From a virus (Duplodnaviria; Heunggongvirae; Uroviricota; Caudoviricetes), in the IMG/VR virus record IMGVR_UViG_2574180220_000005: a stretch of DNA of 14,582 bases, one strand, 5' to 3'. This document shows positions 1,837 to 14,582 of the stretch, in pieces. The stretch's first letter is position 1, and the number at the start of each line of letters is the position of its first letter. The translations under genes were made by a program, and so were the position numbers. The notes under the pieces are model-generated. The model was not told where the DNA came from. It did not search any database and saw only the letters and a program-made list of their open reading frames with translations.

Positions 1837-2662
1837 TACCCCAGAAGCGGAAACCGTCACGGCGAATCAGTGTTGTGACGCCTGACTCGTTAAGCAGGTC
1901 AGCATCGGTGCCGGACTCCTGCAAATCCCAGAATACAGATGCGCTGATGCCGGTAACACCGTTCACCCCGACGTTGGACAGCGTTTTATGCCAGCCCTGC
2001 TCATGGTCTATTTTGGCACGCAGACCCAGCGCACGTGCGGTGGCATACGCGGTGGCGGTGGTACTGGTGACCGTATCCCATGCGAGGAAATCCGGCCAGA
2101 TGACCATCAGCTCACGCTGGCTGAAATTCTGGCGGTAGGCTTTCACCTCAGAAATGGTTTTACAGCCCCATGCGCTGATATACCCGAAAGCGCGCAGCTT
2201 CTGACAGACTGATGCCAGTGCAACAGCCACCTCTTTGGTATCCAGCCCCGGCACACCAAGAATACGCGGTTTAACACCGGTTACCGACTCCGCCGCCAGC
2301 AGGGCTTTCAGTCCGGTGTACTGACCGTTTTCGTCGGTGGTTCCGATGATATTGGAAACAGTCTGCGCGAGTTTCGTTTCTTCGTCTTCGCCGGTGCCGT
2401 CTTCCACGCGCACGACAACGGTGACCGGTTTTGACTGGTCGGCGATGGCCTGCAACGATGCCGCCAGCGTGCCTTTTTTACCGGCCTTTGCAATTGCGCT
2501 CTGCACATTGGTAATCAGCACCGGTTTATTGAGGGGGAAGATTTCCGCATCCGCATCGCTGGCCGTGCAGACCATGCCGACAATGGCAGTGGATACGGTG
2601 GAAATGACGCGGGTGCCGTCGTTAATCTCCAGCACCTGCACGCCGTGATGATAGTCACTCAT
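1837..2662 (-). pseudogene. FI: P2 tail sheath gene FI, N-terminal ~275 codons only, fused out of frame to the ogr remnant (the fusion ORF runs 1793..2662)
   Basis: ORF starts at ATG 2660-2662 with a GGAG Shine-Dalgarno; translation MSDYHHGVQVLEINDGTRVISTVSTAIVGMVCTASDADAE... matches P2 gpFI (from memory) up to ...RRDGFRFWG, then reads ogr DNA in another frame (MPACRTCAYKSLYH*). P2 FI is ~396 aa, so ~120 C-terminal codons are missing. Confidence 0.85.
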
Positions 2663-2937: not shown

Positions 2938-4551
2938 CTATATTTTACCCGAAAACTCACCAAAATATGGTCTGAGAGCATTTCTCATTGACTCTCCACT
3001 TTCATTATTAGCCATCCTGACCACTAATTCAGCAAGCTGTCCATTAGCCAGCCCCAGATGCTTACTTACTTGGGATGAAAGGCTTTTCCTGTTATAAAGT
3101 TTTAATGCAAGAAGATAATCACGTTTCTCAACTGCATTATTAAACAGAGATAAACTTTCATCATAAAGCTCTTTAACATTAATTTGTGACGTCAACAACT
3201 CAAGAGCTCTACTAAGAGCATCGACCCCTTTTGCTTTTTCATCAAAACAATTAAGCATGAATTTAATTTCGCCAGCCACACGCAGTGAAATCTGAGTATC
3301 CAGCTCTGAGGATATTTTACGGAACACAAAATCTTTAACTGATTGTAGATCTTTATCTGGATTCCTGACTAATCGTTCGCTAACTAAAGTTATAACTTCC
3401 GGAACGCAAAAGAGATTTTCGACTTCAGCCACGCTTAGAGTATAAATACCGTATTCCAGAAGCGATTGAATTTCATTTTCAACACGTCTATCCCTATCAA
3501 TAATACCAAAAACTTCCATATAATGGAGTTTTTCACTGGCTCTTAGAGCTTTAACATTTTGTATTACTTGACTACAAGAACCAGATGGTATCACTAGATA
3601 ACTATTTAACACAGCACGATAAAGGGATACATCATAGCTTCCATTTTCCCCCTCAACAAAAACAATTGGTTTTCTACTACCCAATATTTCAATTAATAAA
3701 CTTTCTGGTAGGCCTTCGACATCGGGAACATCTTCCCAATCCCAACTGGAACCATCATAACTTTTTAACCAGATTTTCTTTGCATCATGCAGTGCTGCAG
3801 CAAAATCAGTATCATGAGTCATATATACAAACAGGCAATCAGGTCGGAGTTTTTCTATATCCTTCCATAATGGAACTTGTACAGATTTGTGAAGATGAAT
3901 TTCAGGCTCGTCTATGACAATAATTCCATTTTCGGGTGCTGCAAGACATTGCCCAATCAGATAGAAAATAACTCGCTCACCGTCGCTCATTTCCGAGGGG
4001 TTATAGACAGCCTCGTTATTTCCTTTTGCTCGTGTTTGAATTGTTAAACCGCCTAAAACAAGCTCTCGGTGAGGTAATGTTTTTTCCCAAATATATTTAA
4101 TTTTATCTAATTTAGTCGTCGTTGGTTCAATTCTTTTTTCTGAAGATTTAACTAATTCAATATATTTCGAGTCTTCTTCAATTTTGTCTGAAAAGAGATA
4201 CACCATTAATTTACCATAATCATTTAATGATGATATGGCAGGGTTACTTCCCCAGCGATAATTCTCTTTATACCAAAGTGGTTCCGACCCTTCCAAATTT
4301 TCAATTCCATAGAGTAAATTATTCTGTGCTTGTTGAAGCGAAGTTGGTGTTGTATGGTCAGGCATCGCTAAAGCCCGCTGAGCGGAAATACGATGAACAA
4401 TATTTCTTTGAGGAGATTTTAGATCCATCCATGTCCCAAGGCGAGACTTTCCAGAGCCATTCGCACCGATAATAAGCACGCTCTGATTAGTCTCTATTTC
4501 CGCTAGGTCTTTTTCTTTTGTAGGTAGTGTAATTGAAAATGAATTGCTCAT
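2938..4551 (-). CDS. Cargo gene 1: 537-aa ABC-type ATPase fused to a TOPRIM/DUF4435-like domain and a helical C-terminal tail (OLD-family or PARIS-like single-polypeptide candidate defence nuclease)
   Basis: Intact ORF with a strong RBS (AAGGAGGG before ATG 4549-4551). Walker A GANGSGKS (aa 29-36, nt 4444-4467), ABC signature-like SDGER (aa 189-193), Walker B IIVIDEPE (aa 210-217), H-loop YMTHD (aa ~246). TOPRIM-like Glu in PIVFVEGE (E300, nt 3652-3654) and DxD in GIIDRDRR (D352/D354, nt 3490-3498). Lower G+C than flanking P2 genes by eye. Sits between FI and G, the P2 Z/fun hotspot position. Confidence 0.6.
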   Translation of the reverse strand: MSNSFSITLPTKEKDLAEIETNQSVLIIGANGSGKSRLGTWMDLKSPQRNIVHRISAQRALAMPDHTTPTSLQQAQNNLLYGIENLEGSEPLWYKENYRWGSNPAISSLNDYGKLMVYLFSDKIEEDSKYIELVKSSEKRIEPTTTKLDKIKYIWEKTLPHRELVLGGLTIQTRAKGNNEAVYNPSEMSDGERVIFYLIGQCLAAPENGIIVIDEPEIHLHKSVQVPLWKDIEKLRPDCLFVYMTHDTDFAAALHDAKKIWLKSYDGSSWDWEDVPDVEGLPESLLIEILGSRKPIVFVEGENGSYDVSLYRAVLNSYLVIPSGSCSQVIQNVKALRASEKLHYMEVFGIIDRDRRVENEIQSLLEYGIYTLSVAEVENLFCVPEVITLVSERLVRNPDKDLQSVKDFVFRKISSELDTQISLRVAGEIKFMLNCFDEKAKGVDALSRALELLTSQINVKELYDESLSLFNNAVEKRDYLLALKLYNRKSLSSQVSKHLGLANGQLAELVVRMANNESGESMRNALRPYFGEFSGKI

Positions 4552-4813: not shown

Positions 4814-5341
4814 TTATTGCGGCATTTCCGGCCATTCAGGATTTGCAGGATCCACACGACTGACCAGAACGCTGTAACGCTCCCATGCATCCAGTCGGCT
4901 ACGCTCCTCATCTGTTGCCATGTTCAGTCTGACAGCGCGATCCAGCGGCAAAATCACGGATTCAGCATCTGCAAGAAGTCTGGCTTTCCGGTTTTCTGCC
5001 TGCTGCTGCAATTCCTCTGCCGTATAAATGCGTTTAATCACTTTGCCGTCCTTAAACATCCAGTTCCCTGAAATGTCCGCCCGTCGGTTAGCAGTAATAT
5101 CCGCCACTTCAACAACACTTAATCCATCCGGTCTGATAGCTGTCACATCCTTTTCCACATAGCGGATGATATTATCTTTGTCGTACGCTATTTTTAGCGT
5201 GTCATCAGCAAAATACTTTTGTTCTTCGTACCAGTTCTTACCATCTTCTGAAAAAAACCAGACAACATCAAAGTCTTTTGTCAATTGATATTGTTCAACC
5301 GTTTTTGGATTACCTGCCGTTATATTTATCAAATGCTGCAT
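4814..5341 (-). CDS. G: P2-type tail fiber assembly protein gpG, 175 aa, intact
   Basis: Translation [40 protein letters not shown]...[14 protein letters not shown] is the same length as, and closely resembles, P2 gpG (from memory). Confidence 0.8.
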
Positions 5342-5344
5342 AAA

Positions 5345-5590
5345 TTATACCTGCGCCACGTTATACCAAGTCCCGTTAATGTATTTCTGCACCGGTCTGT
5401 AATATACGCCACCAATGTTATCGGCAGAGTTTGAGCCGGTATCCTGAACAATAATGCCGGAATATACACACCCGGACGGTGCCTGATGTGTCCATGTCAT
5501 ACCATTGTTCGCAGGTTTGTATGTGGCAGCACCACCAAGCCGGATATCCCGGACATAGCGTGAATCAAAGTTGCCATAGTTAGATGGTGA
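5345..5590 (-). pseudogene. H: Tail fiber gene H, C-terminal ~80 codons only
   Basis: Minus-strand frame ending at TAA (plus-strand 5345-5347) encodes ...NYGNFDSRYVRDIRLGGAATYKPANNGMTWTHQAPSGCVYSGIIVQDTGSNSADNIGGVYYRPVQKYINGTWYNVAQV, a P2-like tail fiber C-terminus. There is no start codon, and it abuts the J fragment in a different frame. Confidence 0.55.
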
Positions 5591-5726
5591 TACGGGCGAC
5601 CGCCTCCTGCTGGTCTTCCGGGTAAAGGGAAATCAGTGTCGCCTTGCGTTCGGCAAGAATGGTTTCAAAGTCCAGCTCCTCGACCACATCCGGTGCGGGT
5701 AGCTGGTTCAGGTCGATAATCGGCAT
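5580..5726 (-). pseudogene. J: Baseplate gene J, N-terminal ~45 codons only, ending in a premature stop at the deletion junction
   Basis: ATG at 5724-5726 directly after the W stop; translation MPIIDLNQLPAPDVVEELDFETILAERKATLISLYPEDQQEAVAR matches the P2 gpJ N-terminus (from memory), then ITI and a stop. Confidence 0.7.
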
Positions 5727-5730
5727 GGTT

Positions 5731-6078
5731 TCAACTCACAGGGATGGTTAACGAAAGTGGCTGGCCGGTGTCGTTGTGCTGGCCGGTCAAAGTGACAGTC
5801 ATTCGCCCGTCAAAACTGCGCTCAGTGGTGACGGATGACAGGGTGATGCGGGGTTCCCATTTCAGCACCGCCATGTAACAGGCGACCTTAATCTGCAACT
5901 CAAGCGCCGGGGTCTGCGGCTGGTCAATCATTGACGCCAGCAACGAGCCGTAATCACGACGCATCACCCGTGAGCCGATCGGTGTGCGCAGGATATCGCC
6001 GATACTCTGGCTGATATGCTCAAGGTCAGTGACAGTCAGGCCATCACTGCGATTCATTCCGAGATAACGCGCTGTCAT
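5731..6078 (-). CDS. W: P2 baseplate wedge protein gpW (gp25-like), 115 aa, intact
   Basis: Translation MTARYLGMNRSDGLTVTDLEHISQSIGDILRTPIGSRVMRRDYGSLLASMIDQPQTPALELQIKVACYMAVLKWEPR... matches P2 gpW (from memory). Its start overlaps the stop of the upstream V fragment (ATGA). Confidence 0.85.
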   Translation of the reverse strand: MTARYLGMNRSDGLTVTDLEHISQSIGDILRTPIGSRVMRRDYGSLLASMIDQPQTPALELQIKVACYMAVLKWEPRITLSSVTTERSFDGRMTVTLTGQHNDTGQPLSLTIPVS

Positions 6079-6300
6079 TTTGTCCCCTGTGTCCAGTTGT
6101 CACCTGACTTAACACCACCGTGACCGTGGTCATCCACCTGAACGCCGTTAGAAGTGAATTTCCCGTCGGTATCCGCCGTGGCTGTCTGGAATATGACGTC
6201 AGCGCCACCGACATCACCAGCTCGTTTATGGCTATCCGCAAGACCATGACCAGCAGTGGACGCAGCGCCACCTATGAGGCCAGCCGCAGCGAGGAAGCCA
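6075..6300 (-). pseudogene. V: Baseplate spike gene V, C-terminal fragment (upstream boundary uncertain)
   Basis: The minus-strand frame ends ...GKFTSNGVQVDDHGHGGVKSGDNWTQGTK with a stop overlapping the W start; the His/Gly-rich C-terminus resembles the P2 gpV apex. The expected ~210-aa ORF is absent. Confidence 0.5.
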
Positions 6301-6404
6301 GCCACGCCGACCTCGCCTGGGCGACCATGCACGCCCTGTTAAATGAGCCACTCACCGCCGGTATCAGCACCCCGCTGACATCCACCATTCTGGAGTTTTA
6401 CTGA
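6300..6404 (+). pseudogene. P: Probable 3' remnant of the large terminase gene P (5' boundary uncertain)
   Basis: The plus-strand frame ends ...LAWATMHALLNEPLTAGISTPLTSTILEFY with a stop overlapping the Q start (TGATG), the arrangement expected for the P-Q operon. I cannot confirm the protein match from memory. Confidence 0.35.
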
Positions 6405-7438
6405 TGAGCAAGAAAAAAGGGAAAACACCGCAACCTGCGGCAAAAAAAATGACCGCCAGCGCCCTGAAAATGGAGGCATTCACCTTTGGTGAGCCGGTGC
6501 CGGTACTCGACCGCCGTGACATTCTAGATTACGTCGAGTGCATCAGTAACGGCAGATGGTATGAGCCGCCGGTCAGCTTTACCGGTCTGGCAAAAAGCCT
6601 GCGTGCTGCCGTACATCACAGCTCACCGATTTACGTCAAACGTAATATTCTGGCCTCGACATTTATCCCGCATCCGTGGCTTTCCCAGCAGGATTTCAGC
6701 CGCTTTGTGCTGGATTTTCTGGTGTTCGGTAATGCGTTTCTGGAAAAGCGTTACAGCACTACCGGTAAGGTCATCAGACTGGAAACCTCACCGGCAAAAT
6801 ATACCCGCCGTGGCGTGGAGGAGGATGTTTACTGGTGGGTGCCGTCCTTCAACGAGCCGACAGCCTTCGCGCCCGGTTCCGTGTTTCACCTGCTGGAGCC
6901 CGATATTAATCAGGAGCTGTACGGCCTGCCGGAATATCTCAGCGCCCTTAACTCTGCCTGGCTGAATGAATCGGCCACGCTGTTCCGCCGCAAGTATTAC
7001 GAAAACGGCGCACATGCCGGATACATCATGTACGTCACCGATGCCGTGCAGGATCGCAACGATATCGAAATGCTTCGCGAAAACATGGTGAAGTCGAAAG
7101 GCCGCAACAACTTTAAAAATCTGTTTCTCTATGCCCCGCAGGGGAAAGCCGACGGCATTAAAATTATCCCGCTCAGTGAAGTGGCAACGAAGGACGATTT
7201 TTTTAATATCAAAAAAGTCAGCGCCGCTGACCTGCTGGACGCACACCGCATCCCCTTTCAGTTGATGGGCGGCAAGCCGGAGAACGTCGGGTCACTGGGA
7301 GATATTGAGAAAGTGGCAAAGGTCTTTGTCCGCAATGAGCTTATCCCGTTACAGGACAGGATCCGCGAGATAAACGGCTGGCTCGGTCAGGAGGTCATCC
7401 GCTTTAAAAACTACTCACTGGACACTGACAACGGCTGA
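6404..7438 (+). CDS. Q: P2 portal protein gpQ, 344 aa, intact
   Basis: Translation MSKKKGKTPQPAAKKMTASALKMEAFTFGEPVPVLDRRDILDYVECISNGRWYEPP... matches P2 gpQ in sequence and length (from memory). Confidence 0.9.
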   Translation: MSKKKGKTPQPAAKKMTASALKMEAFTFGEPVPVLDRRDILDYVECISNGRWYEPPVSFTGLAKSLRAAVHHSSPIYVKRNILASTFIPHPWLSQQDFSRFVLDFLVFGNAFLEKRYSTTGKVIRLETSPAKYTRRGVEEDVYWWVPSFNEPTAFAPGSVFHLLEPDINQELYGLPEYLSALNSAWLNESATLFRRKYYENGAHAGYIMYVTDAVQDRNDIEMLRENMVKSKGRNNFKNLFLYAPQGKADGIKIIPLSEVATKDDFFNIKKVSAADLLDAHRIPFQLMGGKPENVGSLGDIEKVAKVFVRNELIPLQDRIREINGWLGQEVIRFKNYSLDTDNG

Positions 7439-7443
7439 ACATC

Positions 7444-7465
7444 GCCGCCTGCGGGCGGCTTTTTT
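7444..7465 (+). terminator. Rho-independent terminator after Q (GCCGCC-tgcg-GGCGGC followed by TTTTTT)
   Basis: 6-bp GC stem at 7444-7449 / 7454-7459 followed by a T6 tract at 7460-7465, immediately 3' of the Q stop. Confidence 0.75.
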
Positions 7466-7607
7466 ACAACCCGCCATCACGCCCTCACACGCTCACCACC
7501 GCACAAAACAGCCCGCATACACACCAACGCCCCGGCGCACAATCTAAACGCCATCACGACGCGCTCAGACGCTGAAAAAATAAAATCAGCACCCCCGCCA
7601 GCGCGCA

Positions 7608-7626
7608 GTGCTTTCCCCGCCTCGCC
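7608..7626. other. P2 cos cohesive-end sequence (19 nt), within the cos region between Q and cargo gene 2
   Basis: GTGCTTTCCCCGCCTCGCC is the exact reverse complement of the P2 19-nt cohesive end GGCGAGGCGGGGAAAGCAC as I recall it; located where cos is expected, next to Q. Confidence 0.7.
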
Positions 7627-7941
7627 CGCCCGCTTCATGGGGCGGTTTTAATGCAGTTGCATGATGAAACTGAAATCACATCAGCACTGACCGAAACTGA
7701 CAAAAAGAATAGTATCTGACACATGCAAAAACACGCACTTAATATACGCCTATCTATAGCTCCTACAGGATTGTCAAAAAACGACCAACTCGTCATAGCG
7801 TAAACACATTTGGCTCAACGAACACTTACGTTATATGCCTCTTGAACATATCAAAGTCTTAAGGTAGATCTTTACCACTAAGTGGCTATATTAAGCTGCT
7901 TTTTTACATACAATAAAAGCTTTATCGTATGAGGCATAAAA

Positions 7942-10158
7942 ATGGAACTTAGATTAAAAAATGTTACCAGTTATAAGAAAGACGCCTTCACAATACTGAA
8001 TCTTGAAAAAAGAGTAAACATACTATACGGCCAAAATGGTTGTGGCAAATCTACCATTTCAAATTATTTCTACGACTCTACACACACAGATTATAACGAG
8101 TGTGAATGTACCCTTCTTGACAATTACAAACCTCTTGTTTACAACACTAAATTTATTGAAGATAATTTCTACAATGCACAGGAACAAAAAGGTGTTTTTA
8201 CATTAAGTAAAGAAAATGCAGATATTGAAAAACAATTAATTGAAAAAGAAGCAATTAAACAGCAACTCACAGAGCAATATAGACAAAAAAAAGGAGTGTT
8301 ATTGAAATTAGAAGCAGAAATGGAAAAAAAAGAAAATGAATACATCGAATCGATCTGGAAAAAAACAGAACCAATCAGAAACTCTGTACTAAAAACCTTA
8401 ATGAAAGGTAAAGTTGGCTATAAAAGACCTTTTTTTGAGATGATAAAATCATCCTCACCAATCACCTTTATTAATTTAAATGATATAGCAAAAGAATACT
8501 CTATACTATTAGAAAATAGAAACAATGAAACCGCATTAATAACTCCTTTACATCCATATATCCCATCAATTGATGATGTAAATACATTAGCAACACCTAT
8601 AATAGATACAAGCAATAGCTATTTATCAGAAACCATTAATAAACTTCATAATCTTGACTGGGTAAAAAAAGGTAAAGAACATTATTTAGACGGTTCTACA
8701 TGTCCGTTTTGTCAGGAAAAAACTATTAGTCACGAATTTTTAAATGCCCTTAAATCAATATTTGACGAAAGTTATTCAAAGAAAGTAAAACAGCTCTCAG
8801 ATATAAAGTCAGTTTATGAGAAAAATACTATATATCATTTTAACGAAATACAAAACAATATATCATCATGTGCACTAATCAATGAGAAAGATAAAGAGAA
8901 CATTATTTCCAATATTAAAATATTGCAAAACATTGCAGAAAAAAATTTAATAAACATTATTGATAAGATCAACAATCCATCAACATGCGTTACATTAGAA
9001 ATTGATAAAGAACTAGAAAATCATGTTCAGGAAAGCATAGGCGCTGTTAACAAGAAAATAAGAGACATAAATGATAAGGTTAAAAAACTCAAAGAGTATG
9101 AGAATAAAATCGGAAAACAAGTTTGGGGGGCTCTCCATGCTTTTTGCAGCGATGATTTAGAGAATTTATCCAAACACAAAGAAAAATTCTTTGATATCAA
9201 AAAGAAAGTTCATGATGAATTAAATAATATTGAGCAACAAGGAAAAGAAAATAATCTCACAATAAAAGCATTGCGAGATAAAATATCTAACATTGATTCT
9301 ACGATAGACTCAATAAACACCCATTTAAAAAATCTAGGGATCTCTGGTTTTTGTATTGAAAAACATGCAGAAAGAAAAGATATGTACATTATATCTCGAC
9401 CAGGGCATACAAAAAACCAAAATGTTTATAGATCTCTTAGCGAAGGTGAAAAAACACTAATAACGTTTCTTTATTTTTTAGAGTGCTGTAAAGGTAAAAC
9501 CGATAAAAATGATACCGATAGCAGGGATATTTTTATTGTTATTGACGATCCAATATCTAGTCTATCGCAAAACTATGTCTACGACATCGCATCAATTATT
9601 CATCACCACATTATAAAAAATGAATTAACAAAGAAGGTATTAATCCTTACTCACAATCTTTATTTCTTTCATGAACTTATTAAGCTATCTCCTAAAAGCA
9701 GAGAAGACAAACTATTTAAGAAAAACTATTATCTAGGTAGAGTAACGAAAAATGATTTTAGTATAATTACTGAAATACAAAAAAACAGCATACAGAATGA
9801 ATATCAATCTTTGTGGCAAATATTAAAAGATGCAAAAGATGGCAAAGCAAACAAAATCATAATACCGAATATTATGAGAAACATACTAGAATATTATTTT
9901 GCATTTGTTCATAGAACAGATGCTCTACAAGATGAATTAACAAAGTTGGCACGCGACGATAGCAACAGTGATTTCAAAGCATTCTACAGATACATTAACA
10001 GAGGTTCTCACTCTGATGCGGTAAATATTACTGATATGGGCGACATAGACCCAGATAAATACCTAAAACAATTGAGAACAATATTTTCAGCTACTGGTGA
10101 CGAAATGCATTATTTAAAAATGATGGACGAACTAGAAGAGGAGAACGTTACCGCTTAG
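7942..10158 (+). CDS. Cargo gene 2: 738-aa AAA_13-type ABC ATPase with a long coiled-coil insert, a CxxC zinc-hook-like motif and a C-terminal putative RNase domain (RloC/PrrC-like anticodon-nuclease candidate)
   Basis: Intact ORF with GAGG ~8 nt before the ATG. Walker A GQNGCGKST (aa 30-38, nt 8029-8055); ~450-aa helical, Lys/Glu-rich insert; CPFC at aa 254-257 (nt 8701-8712); ABC signature LSEGEK (aa 498-503); Walker B IFIVIDD (aa 530-536, nt 9529-9549); H-loop LILTHN (aa ~571). C-terminal ~160 aa carry R-x3-E (RNILE, aa 646-650) and R-x6-H (RYINRGSH, aa 683-690). About 30% G+C by rough hand count of a 70-nt sample, against roughly 50% for the backbone. Sits between cos and A, the P2 tin/old hotspot position. 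Confidence 0.55.
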   Translation: MELRLKNVTSYKKDAFTILNLEKRVNILYGQNGCGKSTISNYFYDSTHTDYNECECTLLDNYKPLVYNTKFIEDNFYNAQEQKGVFTLSKENADIEKQLIEKEAIKQQLTEQYRQKKGVLLKLEAEMEKKENEYIESIWKKTEPIRNSVLKTLMKGKVGYKRPFFEMIKSSSPITFINLNDIAKEYSILLENRNNETALITPLHPYIPSIDDVNTLATPIIDTSNSYLSETINKLHNLDWVKKGKEHYLDGSTCPFCQEKTISHEFLNALKSIFDESYSKKVKQLSDIKSVYEKNTIYHFNEIQNNISSCALINEKDKENIISNIKILQNIAEKNLINIIDKINNPSTCVTLEIDKELENHVQESIGAVNKKIRDINDKVKKLKEYENKIGKQVWGALHAFCSDDLENLSKHKEKFFDIKKKVHDELNNIEQQGKENNLTIKALRDKISNIDSTIDSINTHLKNLGISGFCIEKHAERKDMYIISRPGHTKNQNVYRSLSEGEKTLITFLYFLECCKGKTDKNDTDSRDIFIVIDDPISSLSQNYVYDIASIIHHHIIKNELTKKVLILTHNLYFFHELIKLSPKSREDKLFKKNYYLGRVTKNDFSIITEIQKNSIQNEYQSLWQILKDAKDGKANKIIIPNIMRNILEYYFAFVHRTDALQDELTKLARDDSNSDFKAFYRYINRGSHSDAVNITDMGDIDPDKYLKQLRTIFSATGDEMHYLKMMDELEEENVTA

Positions 10159-10186
10159 GCCGCATATTATCGTTTTGGGTAAGAAC

Positions 10187-10206
10187 GACGGTGCTTACGC
10201 ACCGTC
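10187..10206. terminator. Hairpin between the convergent cargo gene 2 and A (GACGGTGC-ttac-GCACCGTC); possible terminator or structured element, no U-tract
   Basis: Perfect 8-bp stem with a 4-nt loop, read by eye; no flanking T-run on either strand. Confidence 0.3.
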
Positions 10207-10381
10207 TCCCAACGCCCAAAGCGGTAGCGGTTGTACTGGCGTACATTCACTAGCTTTAACATGAGGCAATCTCCATGCCAGCACTATTGTTGCCAATAGC
10301 AGCCTTTATACCCTTTGTACAAAGCTAATACCAAGAGTAATGCAAAGTAGATGTCCCAAGCGGTAACGGGGCTATTCTATG

Positions 10382-12673
10382 TCAAACACAGAAAAAATCA
10401 AAGCGCCCTATGAATCCCCCCCAACCATCAGCGACCGGATACGTGAATTTTTTCCCGTCATAATTTACGGTCGCTCCACGCGCCAGCGCCTCAAGCTCCC
10501 ATCGCTGCGGCATGATACCGTTCTGAGCAAGGTCAACGCGGATACGGGTGATTTGCAATCGTTCAGACCTGGTCAGTCTGGCAGATGGTGCAATTTCATG
10601 CGGTTTTAACGGGCTTCCGTTTCTTTGCTGACGGTTTGGCGTTCTCAGGTCGTATTTTAATGCGCCCCTGAGCGCCCTCACGACCTCCGGTTCATTCCAT
10701 TCAATAACACCGTCATCAACCAGATTAAGCACTGCTGCGGCGTGCTCAGAAGGTGTGGGAGCCGGTAACGAAGTATCACCACCGGTGAGCTTTCCACAGT
10801 TATTGACAGGACTCCGAGGCGCGGCGATGCCGCTTTTTAAAGTCAGAGGCTCAACGACCGGAACTTTCGGCACAATGCGCCAGTCCGTCGTTCTGGTGAT
10901 ATGAATATGACGCGCGCCGAGATGCGGCGCGTAAATGCCGACCACTCTCTCGACTTCTTCCTCGTACTCGTTAACTTCATCCGACGGACTACGGGCGACC
11001 CTGACAGTCTGACAATCGCGCGGGACATTTGCCCCACCCTGCGCGCTGATATACAACGCAAAATCACCACTGTCTGCGGCGGCGCGTGCAGCCTCGACGC
11101 GCTCGTCAAACTCATCAGCAATGCTGACGCCGCGAGGCAATTTGCGTAGTTCACGGTAAGCCCCCATTGTCGGCAGACCAACCGTTTTAAATTGTGGGAT
11201 GCGCCACGTTGACGCCCATGCGGTAACAGCCGCAGCAGTGTCTTTCAGCGGTCTGCCGGTATCGTTATCGAGCTGACCATCCAGTGCATAGCCATCGATG
11301 TTTTTTGAGATGTATTTCGCGATATACCCCGCAGCACCGCCCTGGTTAAGGTGTTTTGCCTGAAAACGGTTTCGCGCGGCTCCTCTTTCGTCGCCATCCT
11401 CTTTGAGCGCATAGCGACGCATGATTTCGATAATCTGGTTACGCTGGCGTGGATTACAAAAAAGCATCATATGCCAGTGCGGCGTTCCGTCGTGGTGTGG
11501 CTCGACGACACGCAAACCGTAGACCTGTAAATCATTATCTTTGAATGCCGTGCGCATCAGGCTCCAGATATGGCAGAGATAACGCTGCGCATCCTTTGGA
11601 TTAAATGCCTCATCGTTCCAGCCGTGATTTAGCTGGACGGTTTTACTTTCGCCTTTTCCGACCTGACGTGTCGGGTGATACTTTGAAGGCGCGGTAAGCG
11701 TGATAAACATCCCCACATCACCCTCTGCGGCGGCGTAACGCTCAATACCGGCAATGGTGTTCATCAGCTCCATCCGGCGAATTTCAGGATTAGAAATACT
11801 GCCCATCACCTTACTGATAAGGTCGATGCGCTCGCCGGTTTCCCTGTTTTCAAGGTCACACGATTTAAGAAATTCCAGATTTGCCTGGCGGCGTGCACGC
11901 ACATCACGAATGGCATGTTTACTGGCATAAGGAGAACGGTCTTTATTCACCTCCCCGACAGCAATCAGTAACGCCTCATGCCAGCGCATACGCTGGCCTT
12001 TGAGCTGATGAGTCCACCACTCATCGTTAAACAGACGGGCAATGGCAGAATATGCCTGCCTCGTGGTCATCTGTCCTTTACGGTATTTTTTCCAGTAAAG
12101 CGGGGAAATATTGAAAGCACGTGCAGCGCCAGCAACATGACCATAGAGGTGAGCCTGCGCCTCATCCGTAAACAGCGATTCTTTTTCGCCATGTGCATCC
12201 ACCCAGGCATCGCTGAGTTCCTCATACATCATGAAAAGCTGCGATGAGATACGGGCGGCAAACTTTTTCAGCTCCTTGTCATTCATTCCCGGCAGGCGCG
12301 CATAGTGGTCACGCTCTGCCAGAAACAGCAACGACGCGTCGGTGTTCATTTCATGGCGCTGATTCACACGCTCAATGCGCGGCCATAAACGACGCTGAAA
12401 AGTGGATGTGAGGAAATAAAACCCGTGCACCGGGCTTTTATTGCGCCGGATGTAGTCATAGCGTGAAGTAAACAGCGAGCGCAAAAAGTAAGGCAGGCGG
12501 TTAATCGTGGATAAAACACCTTGCATCTGACGCATCTCGTCACGTGTAAGGGGTCTTTCGCGCCCGACGGCCTCGCGTGGCGCGTTCCATGCATAAGCAC
12601 CGGTAAACATCTTACCGGTGCCTGCGGCAAATGCTGACGGAGGGACAAAACGCCCGGAGGCTTTAACGGCCAT
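10382..12673 (-). CDS. A: P2 replication initiation protein gpA (rolling-circle Rep of the HUH superfamily), intact; the ORF track's upstream Met at 12715 is an alternative start
   Basis: Translation from MAVKASGRFVPPSAFAAGTGKMFTGAYAWNAPREAV... matches P2 gpA (from memory). HUH motif PHWHMML and paired active-site tyrosines GYIAKYISK are present. The P2 origin is known to lie inside the A coding sequence (established knowledge; not located here). Confidence 0.88.
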   Translation of the reverse strand: MAVKASGRFVPPSAFAAGTGKMFTGAYAWNAPREAVGRERPLTRDEMRQMQGVLSTINRLPYFLRSLFTSRYDYIRRNKSPVHGFYFLTSTFQRRLWPRIERVNQRHEMNTDASLLFLAERDHYARLPGMNDKELKKFAARISSQLFMMYEELSDAWVDAHGEKESLFTDEAQAHLYGHVAGAARAFNISPLYWKKYRKGQMTTRQAYSAIARLFNDEWWTHQLKGQRMRWHEALLIAVGEVNKDRSPYASKHAIRDVRARRQANLEFLKSCDLENRETGERIDLISKVMGSISNPEIRRMELMNTIAGIERYAAAEGDVGMFITLTAPSKYHPTRQVGKGESKTVQLNHGWNDEAFNPKDAQRYLCHIWSLMRTAFKDNDLQVYGLRVVEPHHDGTPHWHMMLFCNPRQRNQIIEIMRRYALKEDGDERGAARNRFQAKHLNQGGAAGYIAKYISKNIDGYALDGQLDNDTGRPLKDTAAAVTAWASTWRIPQFKTVGLPTMGAYRELRKLPRGVSIADEFDERVEAARAAADSGDFALYISAQGGANVPRDCQTVRVARSPSDEVNEYEEEVERVVGIYAPHLGARHIHITRTTDWRIVPKVPVVEPLTLKSGIAAPRSPVNNCGKLTGGDTSLPAPTPSEHAAAVLNLVDDGVIEWNEPEVVRALRGALKYDLRTPNRQQRNGSPLKPHEIAPSARLTRSERLQITRIRVDLAQNGIMPQRWELEALARGATVNYDGKKFTYPVADGWGGFIGRFDFFCV

Positions 12674-12938
12674 ATGAGCCAAAAGCCTCTGAACAACGCT
12701 TGCTGAGTTGCTCAACCTGCACGTTTAAATCAGCAAAAGACTTTGCGCTTCCGGTCAGAATATCGTGATGCATCAGGCCTGAAACGAGCTGGCTTAATTT
12801 CGGGTAATAACCAACCACCGCCAGCCATTCCTGACCGGCGTTTTTACCGCTTTCCGCTCTCTTTTTCTCGTGGAGAATAAACTGAAAGCTGTCACTGGTA
12901 ACGACATAACGTTCGCCAATTTCAATACGAATACTCAT
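12663..12938 (-). CDS. Small early-operon protein immediately upstream of A (P2 orf83-like; name uncertain), 91 aa
   Basis: ORF with a GGAG RBS, ending 11 nt into A in another frame; its start overlaps the stop of the upstream remnant (ATGA). Synteny with the P2 orf80-83/A block; identity not verified. Confidence 0.55.
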   Translation of the reverse strand: MSIRIEIGERYVVTSDSFQFILHEKKRAESGKNAGQEWLAVVGYYPKLSQLVSGLMHHDILTGSAKSFADLNVQVEQLSKRCSEAFGSYGR

Positions 12939-13027
12939 GCCGTTCTCCGGTAATGTTTGTTTTTTGCTTCAAAGACTGACTGACAGGAAACACAACGCGT
13001 GGCTGACGGGTAAGCCGCACGACGGGC
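12935..13027 (-). pseudogene. 3' remnant (~30 codons) of the gene preceding the orf83-like gene (P2 orf82-like?), truncated at the int junction
   Basis: The minus-strand frame ends ...PSATRCVSCQSVFEAKNKHYRRTA with TGA overlapping the ATG of the next gene; further upstream the same strand is antisense to int. Confidence 0.3.
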
Positions 13028-13999
13028 ATCCGCCCTACTGGACGTAATGGAAAACGCATCCGTAGGAAGTTTGATAAGAAAAGCGAAGCTGTCGCTTTCG
13101 AGAAATACACGTTGTACAACCACCACAATAAAGAATGGCTATCAAAACCAACAGACAAGCGACGTCTGTCGGAGCTGACACAGATCTGGTGGGATTTAAA
13201 GGGTAAACACGAAGAGAATGGGAAATCTAATCTTGGAAAAATTGAAATCTTCACAAAAATAACGAATGACCCATGCGCATTTCAAATTACGAAATCGCTT
13301 ATCAGCCAGTACTGCGCCACCCGAAGAAGTCAGGGTATTAAACCTTCGAGTATCAATCGTGATTTAACATGTATTAGCGGCATGTTTACAGCCCTGATTG
13401 AAGCGGAGTTATTCTTTGGTGAGCACCCTATCAGAGGGACAAAAAGGCTTAAGGAGGAAAAACCAGAAACAGGCTATCTAACACAGGAAGAAATTGCCTT
13501 ACTGCTTGCAGCACTTGACGGCGACAATAAAAAGATTGCGATTCTTTGCCTGAGTACAGGAGCACGTTGGGGAGAAGCAGCTCGTTTGAAAGCAGAAAAT
13601 ATCATCCATAACCGCGTCACGTTTGTTAAAACGAAAACAAACAAACCACGCACCGTCCCGATCTCAGAGGCTGTTGCCAAAATGATCGCGGATAACAAAC
13701 GAGGTTTTTTATTCCCTGATGCTGATTACCCTCGCTTCAGACGAACAATGAAAGCAATAAAACCGGATTTGCCAATGGGGCAAGCCACACATGCACTAAG
13801 GCACAGCTTTGCCACTCATTTCATGATTAATGGAGGAAGTATTATCACGCTACAACGGATACTAGGTCACACGCGGATTGAGCAAACTATGGTTTACGCT
13901 CATTTTGCGCCAGAGTACCTTCAGGACGCCATTTCTCTTAATCCGCTAAGAGGTGGTACTGAGGCCGAGAGTGTCCACACAGTGTCCACAGTAGAGTAA
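13028..13999 (+). pseudogene. int: P2 integrase (tyrosine recombinase), missing ~14 N-terminal codons and its ATG; catalytic domain intact
   Basis: The frame reads IRPTGRNGKRIRRKFDKKSEAVAFEKYTLYNHHNKEWL... to ...TEAESVHTVSTVE, matching P2 Int from about residue 15 (from memory). An in-frame TGA at 13004-13006 leaves no ATG or GTG before the match; the first candidate start is the TTG at 13112 used by the ORF track. Catalytic-site motifs ARWGEAARLK, HALRHSFATH and GHTRIEQTMVYAHF are present. Confidence 0.8.
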
Positions 14000-14078
14000 C
14001 GTTTAAGGGCTTTCAGTGGTAATTTATGCCGCTCAAACCCGCATTGTACCGTTGAAAGCCCCTACTGGTGACACCCTA

Positions 14079-14105
14079 AATCTCCCTTACACGGGCTTAT
14101 TTTTT
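14079..14105. repeat. Prophage attachment-site core, copy 2 (27 bp), int-proximal end
   Basis: Exact direct repeat of 1507..1533, lying ~80 bp downstream of the int stop. Confidence 0.8.
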
Positions 14106-14169
14106 TATGCATAAGCCCTATCTCTGGTCACCGTCTTCCATTGACCACATCGATAGAATCTCCCTTCAT

Positions 14170-14202
14170 AGCACGATGCCTTTCACGTAACGGCATCGTG
14201 CT
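14170..14202. repeat. Perfect 11-bp inverted repeat AGCACGATGCC-N11-GGCATCGTGCT in host DNA between the att core and yegR
   Basis: Read directly from the sequence; no adjacent U-tract, so not a canonical intrinsic terminator. Confidence 0.5.
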
Positions 14203-14264
14203 CGCACAGGTTCCGGCTAAGCACAACCAGAACGCGCATGTTTGACGCTTACCAAAAAATATTC

Positions 14265-14582
14265 TCACTCTCCACATTTGAATGTCAGACGAGCGACGCC
14301 ATGTAATCCTGCACCTTCTGTCTTCAGGTCAACTATCTGCATTTTTTTGCCCTGAGTAACACAGAAATGGGCTGCATCATTTTTTACTATATTTTCTGCA
14401 CCAGATATTCTGCCCCTGGCTAAAGAAGCTTCGGCTTCGGTGTAGTATTGATTATCGAGTTTACGCTGAATATTACTTTTATATGCAAGACCAAATTTAC
14501 CGATACTTGTCTCATCATTATGCACAGCACAACCAGACATAATAAAAATACTAATTAATGATATAGCAGCTATCTTTTTCAT
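14265..14582 (-). CDS. yegR: Putative lipoprotein YegR, 105 aa (signal peptide MKKIAAISLISIFIMSGC with lipobox Cys)
   Basis: ORF with ATG at 14580-14582 (rc) and stop at 14265-14267; same length and neighbourhood as E. coli yegR downstream of the cyaR/ogr region; lipoprotein signal evident. Confidence 0.65.
   Translation of the reverse strand: MKKIAAISLISIFIMSGCAVHNDETSIGKFGLAYKSNIQRKLDNQYYTEAEASLARGRISGAENIVKNDAAHFCVTQGKKMQIVDLKTEGAGLHGVARLTFKCGE

Follow-up and report, generated by a model that had tools for sequence, protein, structure and literature searches.

Loss of the lysis-lysogeny switch and of the integrase start in a P2-type prophage remnant of Escherichia coli

A cryptic P2 remnant, ogrK-yegZ, lies in the E. 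coli K-12 chromosome between cyaR/yegQ and yegR and keeps only the ogr/D' end of the phage. Prophages that have lost recombinase or excisionase functions become fixed in the chromosome, or 'grounded', after which further deletions follow and useful accessory genes persist (PMC6379469). In integrases of the P2 type, the N-terminal domain binds the arms, the central domain binds the core and the C-terminal domain catalyses (PMC3448106). Alignment positions 16, 19 and 21, occupied by Y, D and R in the P2 group, have been proposed to determine arm specificity, and int-defective point mutations map there (PMC3448106). In the excisive complex of lambda, the N-domain of Int connects the arm sites with the core sites (PMC4880445). 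In P2, the promoter Pc drives the C-int operon and controls repressor and integrase together, and Cox acts as the directionality factor for excision, so that cox-defective prophages yield no free phage (PMC3936717). The interval between genes A and Q is a known defence hotspot of P2 (Rousset et al. 2022, PMC9122126).

The stretch of DNA analysed here (the window) comprises 14,582 nucleotides and is an exact piece of JJME01000044.1 (GCA_000627835.1). Judged from its sequence, it is a P2-type prophage remnant of E. coli located between cyaR/trhP (yegQ) and yegR, the same chromosomal site as that of the K-12 remnant. Its layout was established by mapping the window on the whole P2 genome and from the PGAP annotation of the closest complete genome. 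The host genes trhP (1-1362) and cyaR (an sRNA gene, 1445-1530, Rfam) are followed by one copy of the att core, which is 27 bp long (1507-1533; the att cores, the P' arm, the Cox region and the junction described below are given without a strand) and also forms the cyaR terminator. An IHF site (about 1532-1565) and the P arm (about 1569-1596) adjoin this ogr-end core. The ogr gene, without its first 16 nt, extends to 1838 and is fused to the first 275 codons of FI (1837-2662). A fused PARIS gene (AriAB, 2938-4551; PADLOC 1.7e-186) sits between G and FI at the position of P2 fun(Z), and beyond it lie G (about 4814-5341), a fragment of H or of another gene (about 5345-5600), W with the 5' part of J (5591-6078), a V remnant (about 6079-6166), the last 238 nt of P (from 6167), Q (6404-7438) and cos (7608-7626), of which the 19-nt cohesive end and the flanks are kept. 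A PDC-S06 ATPase gene (7942-10158; PADLOC 1.2e-254) is found between A and cos/Q, where P2 has old, tin and orf91.

At the opposite end, the P' arm Int-binding site (13965-13991) contains two TGTCCACA repeats, at 13972 and 13983, which can be compared with the arm-site consensus tgTGGaCa (PMC3448106). The Cox-binding region of attP (13989-14062) is kept as well, and the second 27-bp att core copy, beside int (14079-14105, AATCTCCCTTACACGGGCTTATTTTTT), marks the point where P2 homology ends and yegR follows; P' arm, Cox sites and core are all identical to P2 attP. Direct-repeat att cores that are identical over 27 bp are hence present at the known P2 integration locus, as in a defective prophage. 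Because the cores match each other exactly and the att region on the int side has the P2 sequence at every base, all cis recombination sites survive. In comparison with P2, four deletions were mapped (int'-orf82', P'-V', J'-H/G and FI'-'ogr), which take a prophage of about 33 kb down to 12.6 kb, and the three besides int'-orf82' took most head, lysis and tail genes. Absent from the remnant are C, cox, B, O, N, M, L, the lysis genes, R, S, I, FII, E, T, U and D; this loss of genes for excision and virion production is that of a 'grounded' P2-like prophage.

The int'-orf82' deletion has its junction at 13027-13028, as placed by three-way alignment, BLAST coordinates and a base-by-base comparison with an intact sibling prophage, that of E. 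coli 09-00049 (NZ_CP015228.1, 2675751-2686411), which occupies the same site beside yegR. Window positions 13027-14105 correspond to P2 25434-24356 with 99.9% DNA identity and one mismatch, running from int codon 15 to the attP core, and positions 10412-13028 correspond to P2 30295-27679 with 99.5% DNA identity, covering A, orf83 and the last 30 codons of orf82. Since these flanking identities of 99.5-99.9% extend over kilobases, chance is not an issue. In the three-way alignment, the window follows the orf82 track up to ...CACGACGGGCA and the int track from CATCCGCCC..., and the dinucleotide CA at 13027-13028 is common to int (P2 25434-25433) and orf82 (P2 27679-27678). Missing with respect to both P2 and the intact sibling are 2,246 bp (P2 25433-27678). 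The deleted block held codons 1-14 of int (MAIKKLDDGRYEVD) together with the int Shine-Dalgarno sequence GGAGGG; the repressor gene C, the promoter Pc, the operators O1 and O2 and the promoter Pe; and cox, orf78, B with its terminator, orf80, orf81 and the first 44 codons of orf82. The 09-00049 prophage is 99.9% identical to the window at 6167-13028 and 99.7% identical at 13024-14582, but unlike the window it has a full 1,014-nt int and the 2,246 bp with int-C-cox-orf78-B-orf80-orf81-orf82 complete; its terminase gene is also full-length, whereas that of the window is truncated.

A sensitive tblastn search across the whole window did not find the C, Cox, Orf78, B, Orf80 or Orf81 proteins of P2 (best E = 0.22), which bears out an earlier reading of the DNA, made from its letters and open reading frames (the sequence-only reading), that repressor, cox and B are absent. 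The same search did detect Orf82 residues 45-74, Orf83 1-91, Ogr 6-72 and Int 15-337. We suggest that a single illegitimate-recombination event at the 2-bp CA microhomology brought int codon 15 up against codon 45 of orf82 in head-to-head orientation, and that this one microhomology-mediated deletion removed the entire lysis-lysogeny switch.

What remains of the integrase gene, int' (13028-13999, plus strand), consists of codons 15-337 of P2 integrase and the stop codon, and RefSeq calls this exact span as a 323-aa CDS. The plus-strand frame ending at 13999 reads, from 13028, IRPTGRNGKRIRRKF... to ...HTVSTVE. BLASTP against P2 Int (NP_046786.1 / VINT_BPP2, 337 aa) returned a gap-free match with 322/323 identities over Int residues 15-337, beginning with IRPTGRNG (13028); the sole protein difference is H78N (A at 13217), within the core-binding domain. 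The catalytic region is intact, with HALRH and VYAHF present and a match to Pfam PF00589 Phage_integrase (9.8e-22), and so is the core-binding domain, where Pfam PF24624 Int_N (7.3e-25) is matched over the full profile, starting at residue 57. Both profiles score for int' as they do for full-length P2 Int.

Upstream of the junction, the int frame is closed on the plus strand by a TGA at 13004-13006, and a second in-frame TGA lies at 12977-12979. An in-frame ATG at 12953 was considered as an upstream start of int' and rejected, being a dead start because TGA 12977 and TGA 13004 come after it. Between 13007 and the TTG at 13112, no ATG, GTG or TTG occurs in the int frame, and the first canonical in-frame start is this TTG (Leu43, 13112-13114, plus strand), which the GenBank annotation uses (295 aa). 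The sequence-only reading had described an integrase that lacks its start codon and about 14 codons, matches P2 Int from IRPTGRNG, is preceded by the TGA at 13004-13006 and keeps a catalytic domain with the HxxR box and the YAHF tyrosine; the alignment with P2 sets the loss at exactly 14 codons, and the BLASTP and Pfam matches agree with the remaining points, to which the second TGA is added. The search for an upstream in-frame ATG or GTG that it had asked for yielded the ATG at 12953, cut off by the two TGA codons. Its view that translation could start only from the TTG at 13112 holds for canonical starts, as in the 295-aa GenBank call, but RefSeq calls a start at ATC 13028.

A functional P2-type heterobivalent tyrosine integrase requires a complete arm-binding domain (about residues 1-45), from which residues 1-14 are deleted here; it also requires transcription from Pc and an initiation codon served by a Shine-Dalgarno sequence, and in int' the ATG, the GGAGGG and the Pc region are all deleted. 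By spacing, the proposed arm-specificity positions 16, 19 and 21 would correspond to Y11, D14 and R16 of P2 Int, of which Y11 and D14 would be lost. A PDB sequence search with the N-terminal 71 residues of P2 Int returned no arm-domain structure, the only match being 5C6K, which begins at residue 46. AlphaFold2, run on the single sequence of full-length P2 Int, gave a mean pLDDT of 38, with only residues 1-40 at 58-80, and this low-confidence model shows three strands (residues 3-5, 11-15 and 25-29) and a helix spanning residues 32-43. The same arrangement of strands and helix is known for the N-domains of lambda and Tn916 Int. Because residues 1-14 are gone, a product initiated at the ATC might, going by this low-confidence model, be without two of the three strands, and a product initiated at the TTG would be without the whole arm-binding domain. 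The latter would equal the fragment in PDB 5C6K (P2 integrase 46-337) plus three residues; 5C6K is itself an engineered laboratory construct. By analogy with lambda Int, truncated Int products should not perform attL x attR recombination.

The signals for expression of int' point in the same direction as its truncation. Pairing with the anti-Shine-Dalgarno sequence at the 16S 3' end amounts to -10.0 kcal/mol for the native int GGAGGG, -3.8 kcal/mol for ATC 13028 and -3.0 kcal/mol for TTG 13112. Promoters and Shine-Dalgarno sequences were assessed by consensus scans, which are only suggestive. No promoter-like sites were found by these scans on the plus strand between about 10,200 and 14,300, and the 4 minus-strand promoter hits inside int, against 2.4 expected, are at chance level; the nearest plus-strand gene is followed by several hairpins on that strand that resemble terminators. 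The scans suggest that neither ATC 13028 nor TTG 13112 has a usable Shine-Dalgarno sequence or promoter. As Pc lies inside the deletion, the loss of int' would be transcriptional besides translational.

The databases treat the gene differently. GenBank records a 295-aa protein from the TTG (EZK33179.1), and RefSeq/PGAP a non-pseudo 323-aa CDS from ATC 13028, with WP_032296015.1 in the strain of the window and WP_032170946.1 in strain 700481; an exact-protein look-up returned no recorded gene for the 295-aa N78 variant. In reporter constructs, AUC initiates at 0.02-3% of AUG, and UUG at 10-100% of AUG given a good ribosome-binding site (bioRxiv 10.1101/063800). Given such near-cognate initiation, trace synthesis of int' from read-through transcripts is possible, but there is no positive sign of it. 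The preferred reading of the gene is that of a pseudogene within a 'grounded' prophage, probably neither expressed nor active.

On the other side of the junction, orf82' (12935-13027, minus strand) keeps the last 30 codons and the stop of a TraR/DksA-type zinc-finger gene (residues 45-74, 100% identical to P2); it retains only the second CxxC motif and is flagged as a pseudogene by PGAP. Its stop overlaps the ATG of orf83 (ATGA), and it is the minus-strand remnant, coupled to an orf83-like gene, that had been noticed upstream of int' in the earlier reading. The orf83 gene itself (DUF5405; 12663-12938, minus strand) is intact, 91/91 identical to P2 Orf83, and has lost the early promoter Pe. Gene A (10382-12673, minus strand), which encodes the replication endonuclease (763 aa) and contains ori, is likewise intact and promoterless after the loss of Pe. 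At 12935-13126, antisense int and orf82' together form a chimeric ORF of 63 codons. A 777-aa minus-strand ORF was considered as P4 alpha primase, which is of similar length, and this was rejected, the ORF being P2 gpA (PF05840, 99.5% DNA identity to P2). Loss of C alone would derepress Pe and switch on cox, B and A, which would be harmful. In this remnant Pe was lost along with C, an outcome that would have silenced orf83 and A instead of derepressing them, and we infer that the switch deletion was tolerated because Pe went too and left both genes silent. The repressor can probably be lost safely only through such a combined deletion of the switch region.

Like the cargo of accessory loci, the defence genes predicted by PADLOC occupy the interval between A and Q (old/tin) as well as the place of fun(Z); the latter we take, in view of the P2 annotation, to be a second variable locus. 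After grounding, the genes in these hotspots may simply stay as fixed chromosomal defence genes. The sequence-only reading went further and proposed that the absence of repressor C frees the cargo from prophage immunity control. This is not supported, because C never controlled those lysogenic-conversion loci in P2: old, tin and fun have their own mapped transcript starts (P2 annotation) and are lysogenic-conversion genes, expressed while C is present (PMC9122126; P2 annotation).

The distribution of the junction indicates how the element has been inherited. With a 301-bp junction query, 1,604 of 5,426 complete E. coli genomes match in part, and only 1 of the 5,426, strain 700481 (Pakistan, human stool), holds the query contiguously, with 100% identity. 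The truncated protein that is identical to P2 is on record in 30 contigs as a 323-aa call and in 51 contigs as a 295-aa call. At six representative places (24 contigs read), the neighbours and the 43-bp junction string are the same, and the intact relative is without the string. The identical junction is found in at least seven independent assemblies (about 26-28 contigs), and the deletion is fixed in a lineage. In strain 700481, whose portal protein and PDC-S06 ATPase have the same accessions as those of the 09-00049 prophage, the genes FI through D are still present and ogr is complete, while another 5,574 bp are deleted in the window; because strain 700481 has the int-orf82 deletion without the 5,574-bp one, the int-orf82 deletion is the older of the two. 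The element appears, from these comparisons, to be decaying stepwise in a vertically inherited lineage. PGAP gives the K-12 name ogrK to the ogr copy in a related strain, and the window represents an earlier stage of decay than the K-12 remnant, since both ends, A, Q, W, G and two defence genes are kept.

We consider it very probable that ordinary prophage decay explains these observations: the deletion of the switch region would ground the remnant and leave int' without promoter, ribosome-binding site or early canonical start. With no Cox and no competent Int, the remnant is presumably unable to excise itself, and a prophage in this state would neither excise, replicate nor lyse. The earlier suggestion that the element is locked in the chromosome and its cargo stably inherited stands in so far as self-excision is very unlikely and the junction is identical in at least seven assemblies; it was incomplete with regard to the decay of the prophage and the loss of Pc. 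Immobilisation is in fact over-determined, three further deletions having occurred besides the loss of the switch.

One alternative is that int' is still translated at a low level, from ATC 13028 or TTG 13112, into an arm-crippled or arm-less Int capable of core binding and cleavage-ligation, which would not excise the element but would have a residual role, for example interference with incoming P2 Int at the core site. The frame is called as a CDS in both annotation pipelines, P2 Int 46-337 is stable enough to crystallise (PDB 5C6K) and non-AUG initiation is measurable in E. coli, but the gene has no Shine-Dalgarno sequence, Pc is deleted and the scans found no replacement promoter. The reading frame remains open, with 322/323 identities to P2 Int 15-337, yet this carries no information, given a divergence of the remnant from P2 of only about 0.1%, and the one substitution acquired in this strain, H78N, is non-synonymous and gives no hint of constraint. 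Low-level expression with a residual role is accordingly an unlikely reading. Still harder to credit is the idea that the junction arose in assembly, or that it reflects a natural alternative arrangement of genes in which a shorter integrase is functional. The window does come from a 2014 short-read draft, and nothing else speaks for it; the same 43-bp junction recurs across seven independent assemblies, one of them a complete chromosome, the two genes that meet there are each truncated and abut without any added sequence, and among the 1,604 of 5,426 complete E. coli genomes that match part of the query only one has both halves joined. We regard this explanation as almost certainly wrong.

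The retained parts also raise the question of mobilisation by a helper. Because all cis excision sites are intact, a P2-type helper could still excise the remnant in trans, and a superinfecting P2-type phage might then excise and package it in the manner of a satellite, which would make it a helper-mobilisable defence island. In favour of this are the identical att cores, the retained P, P', Cox and IHF sites, the survival of the 19-nt cohesive end with its flanks, the intact A and ori, and a size of 12.6 kb, close to that of the P4 genome. A, however, has no promoter, and satellite-type hijacking genes are not present: sid, psu, delta and alpha of P4-like satellites were not encountered, and all genes of the remnant are P2-derived or hotspot cargo. 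Random decay also predicts that these parts are retained, because they adjoin the retained defence genes and the ends, and the junction lies at one chromosomal locus only in all assemblies, which argues for vertical descent and not for transfer. Satellite-like mobilisation therefore seems very unlikely. The more speculative form of these ideas, in which the element is a P2-derived, helper-dependent defence island or, alternatively, the arm-less Int from TTG 13112 is a core-site competitor against incoming P2, is equally given little credence. If it were true, helper-dependent excision and packaging, with a P2-type phage supplying Int and Cox, would spread PARIS and PDC-S06 horizontally.

Under the preferred explanation of ordinary decay, the mapped feature is real but ordinary, a probable pseudogenised integrase in a decaying P2 prophage. 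The mechanism is the same as in grounded and cryptic prophages generally; in this case the damage consists of one deletion in the switch region, with the att sites left as they were. The locus also exposes a clash of annotation, an unflagged 323-aa 'phage integrase' in RefSeq against a 295-aa protein in GenBank, and predictors of prophage completeness or mobility that count integrases could be misled by int'. For the biology of P2-like prophages, the remnant offers a clean, datable example of grounding in which the repressor, both promoters, the excisionase and the integrase start were lost together. With two predicted anti-phage genes fixed in a lineage that is sampled in dozens of assemblies, it may also serve as a tidy case of defence-gene domestication.

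Besides the deletion that removed 2,246 bp of the switch region, including the first 14 codons of the integrase gene (the int deletion), the prophage remnant carries another deletion junction at window positions 1837-1838, where the tail sheath gene FI breaks off after codon 275 and runs out of frame into ogr, itself missing 16 nt at its 5' end. The resulting FI-ogr fusion ORF (1793-2662) is a product of this junction. E. coli strain 700481, the closest complete genome with an identical int deletion junction, retains the 5,574 bp deleted here (the remainder of FI followed by FII, E, T, U and D), and the FI-ogr deletion is therefore younger than the int deletion.

Positions 5345-6403 form a mosaic of late-gene stubs, in which the terminase gene P, reduced to its final 238 nt, lies directly against a remnant of V, W is intact and J is reduced to a 136-nt stub. 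One piece of this mosaic is labeled by PGAP as a 'sugar ABC transporter permease' pseudogene, which is probably a misannotated tail-fibre fragment. Between Q and the PDC-S06 gene, at 7608-7655, the 12.6-kb remnant has kept the 19-nt cohesive-end sequence of P2 along with its flanks and thus still contains a cos site.

Despite the decay of the surrounding prophage, the gene for a fused PARIS protein (2938-4551, minus strand; 537 aa) is undamaged and occupies the site at which P2 itself carries fun(Z). This single-gene system (match to PADLOC AriAB, 1.7e-186) combines AAA_21 and DUF4435/Toprim domains. The A-Q (old/tin) hotspot, adjoining cos, harbors a gene on the plus strand (7942-10158) for an AAA_13 ATPase of 738 aa, which matches the PADLOC candidate system PDC-S06 (1.2e-254) and shows a weak PrrC-like match at its C-terminus.

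The host sRNA gene cyaR (1445-1533, including the att core; Rfam RF00112, 100.7 bits) has the 27-bp att core as its 3' end; the P2 core therefore provides the cyaR terminator, and the 3' end of the sRNA is regenerated on integration. Just past the prophage end and outside the window, strain 700481 carries a ParD/ParE-RelE type II toxin-antitoxin pair between trhP and yegP (18352-18946 of its stretch L003).

The sole difference between the truncated integrase gene (int', 13028-13999) and P2 int is the non-synonymous change H78N (13217), which is specific to this strain pair, as the P2 base is present in strain 700481. Annotation of int' is inconsistent: RefSeq/PGAP presents an ordinary 'phage integrase' of 323 aa with a non-canonical ATC start and no pseudogene flag, whereas GenBank gives 295 aa from a TTG start. 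Such inconsistency would mislead tools that score prophage mobility by integrase counts.
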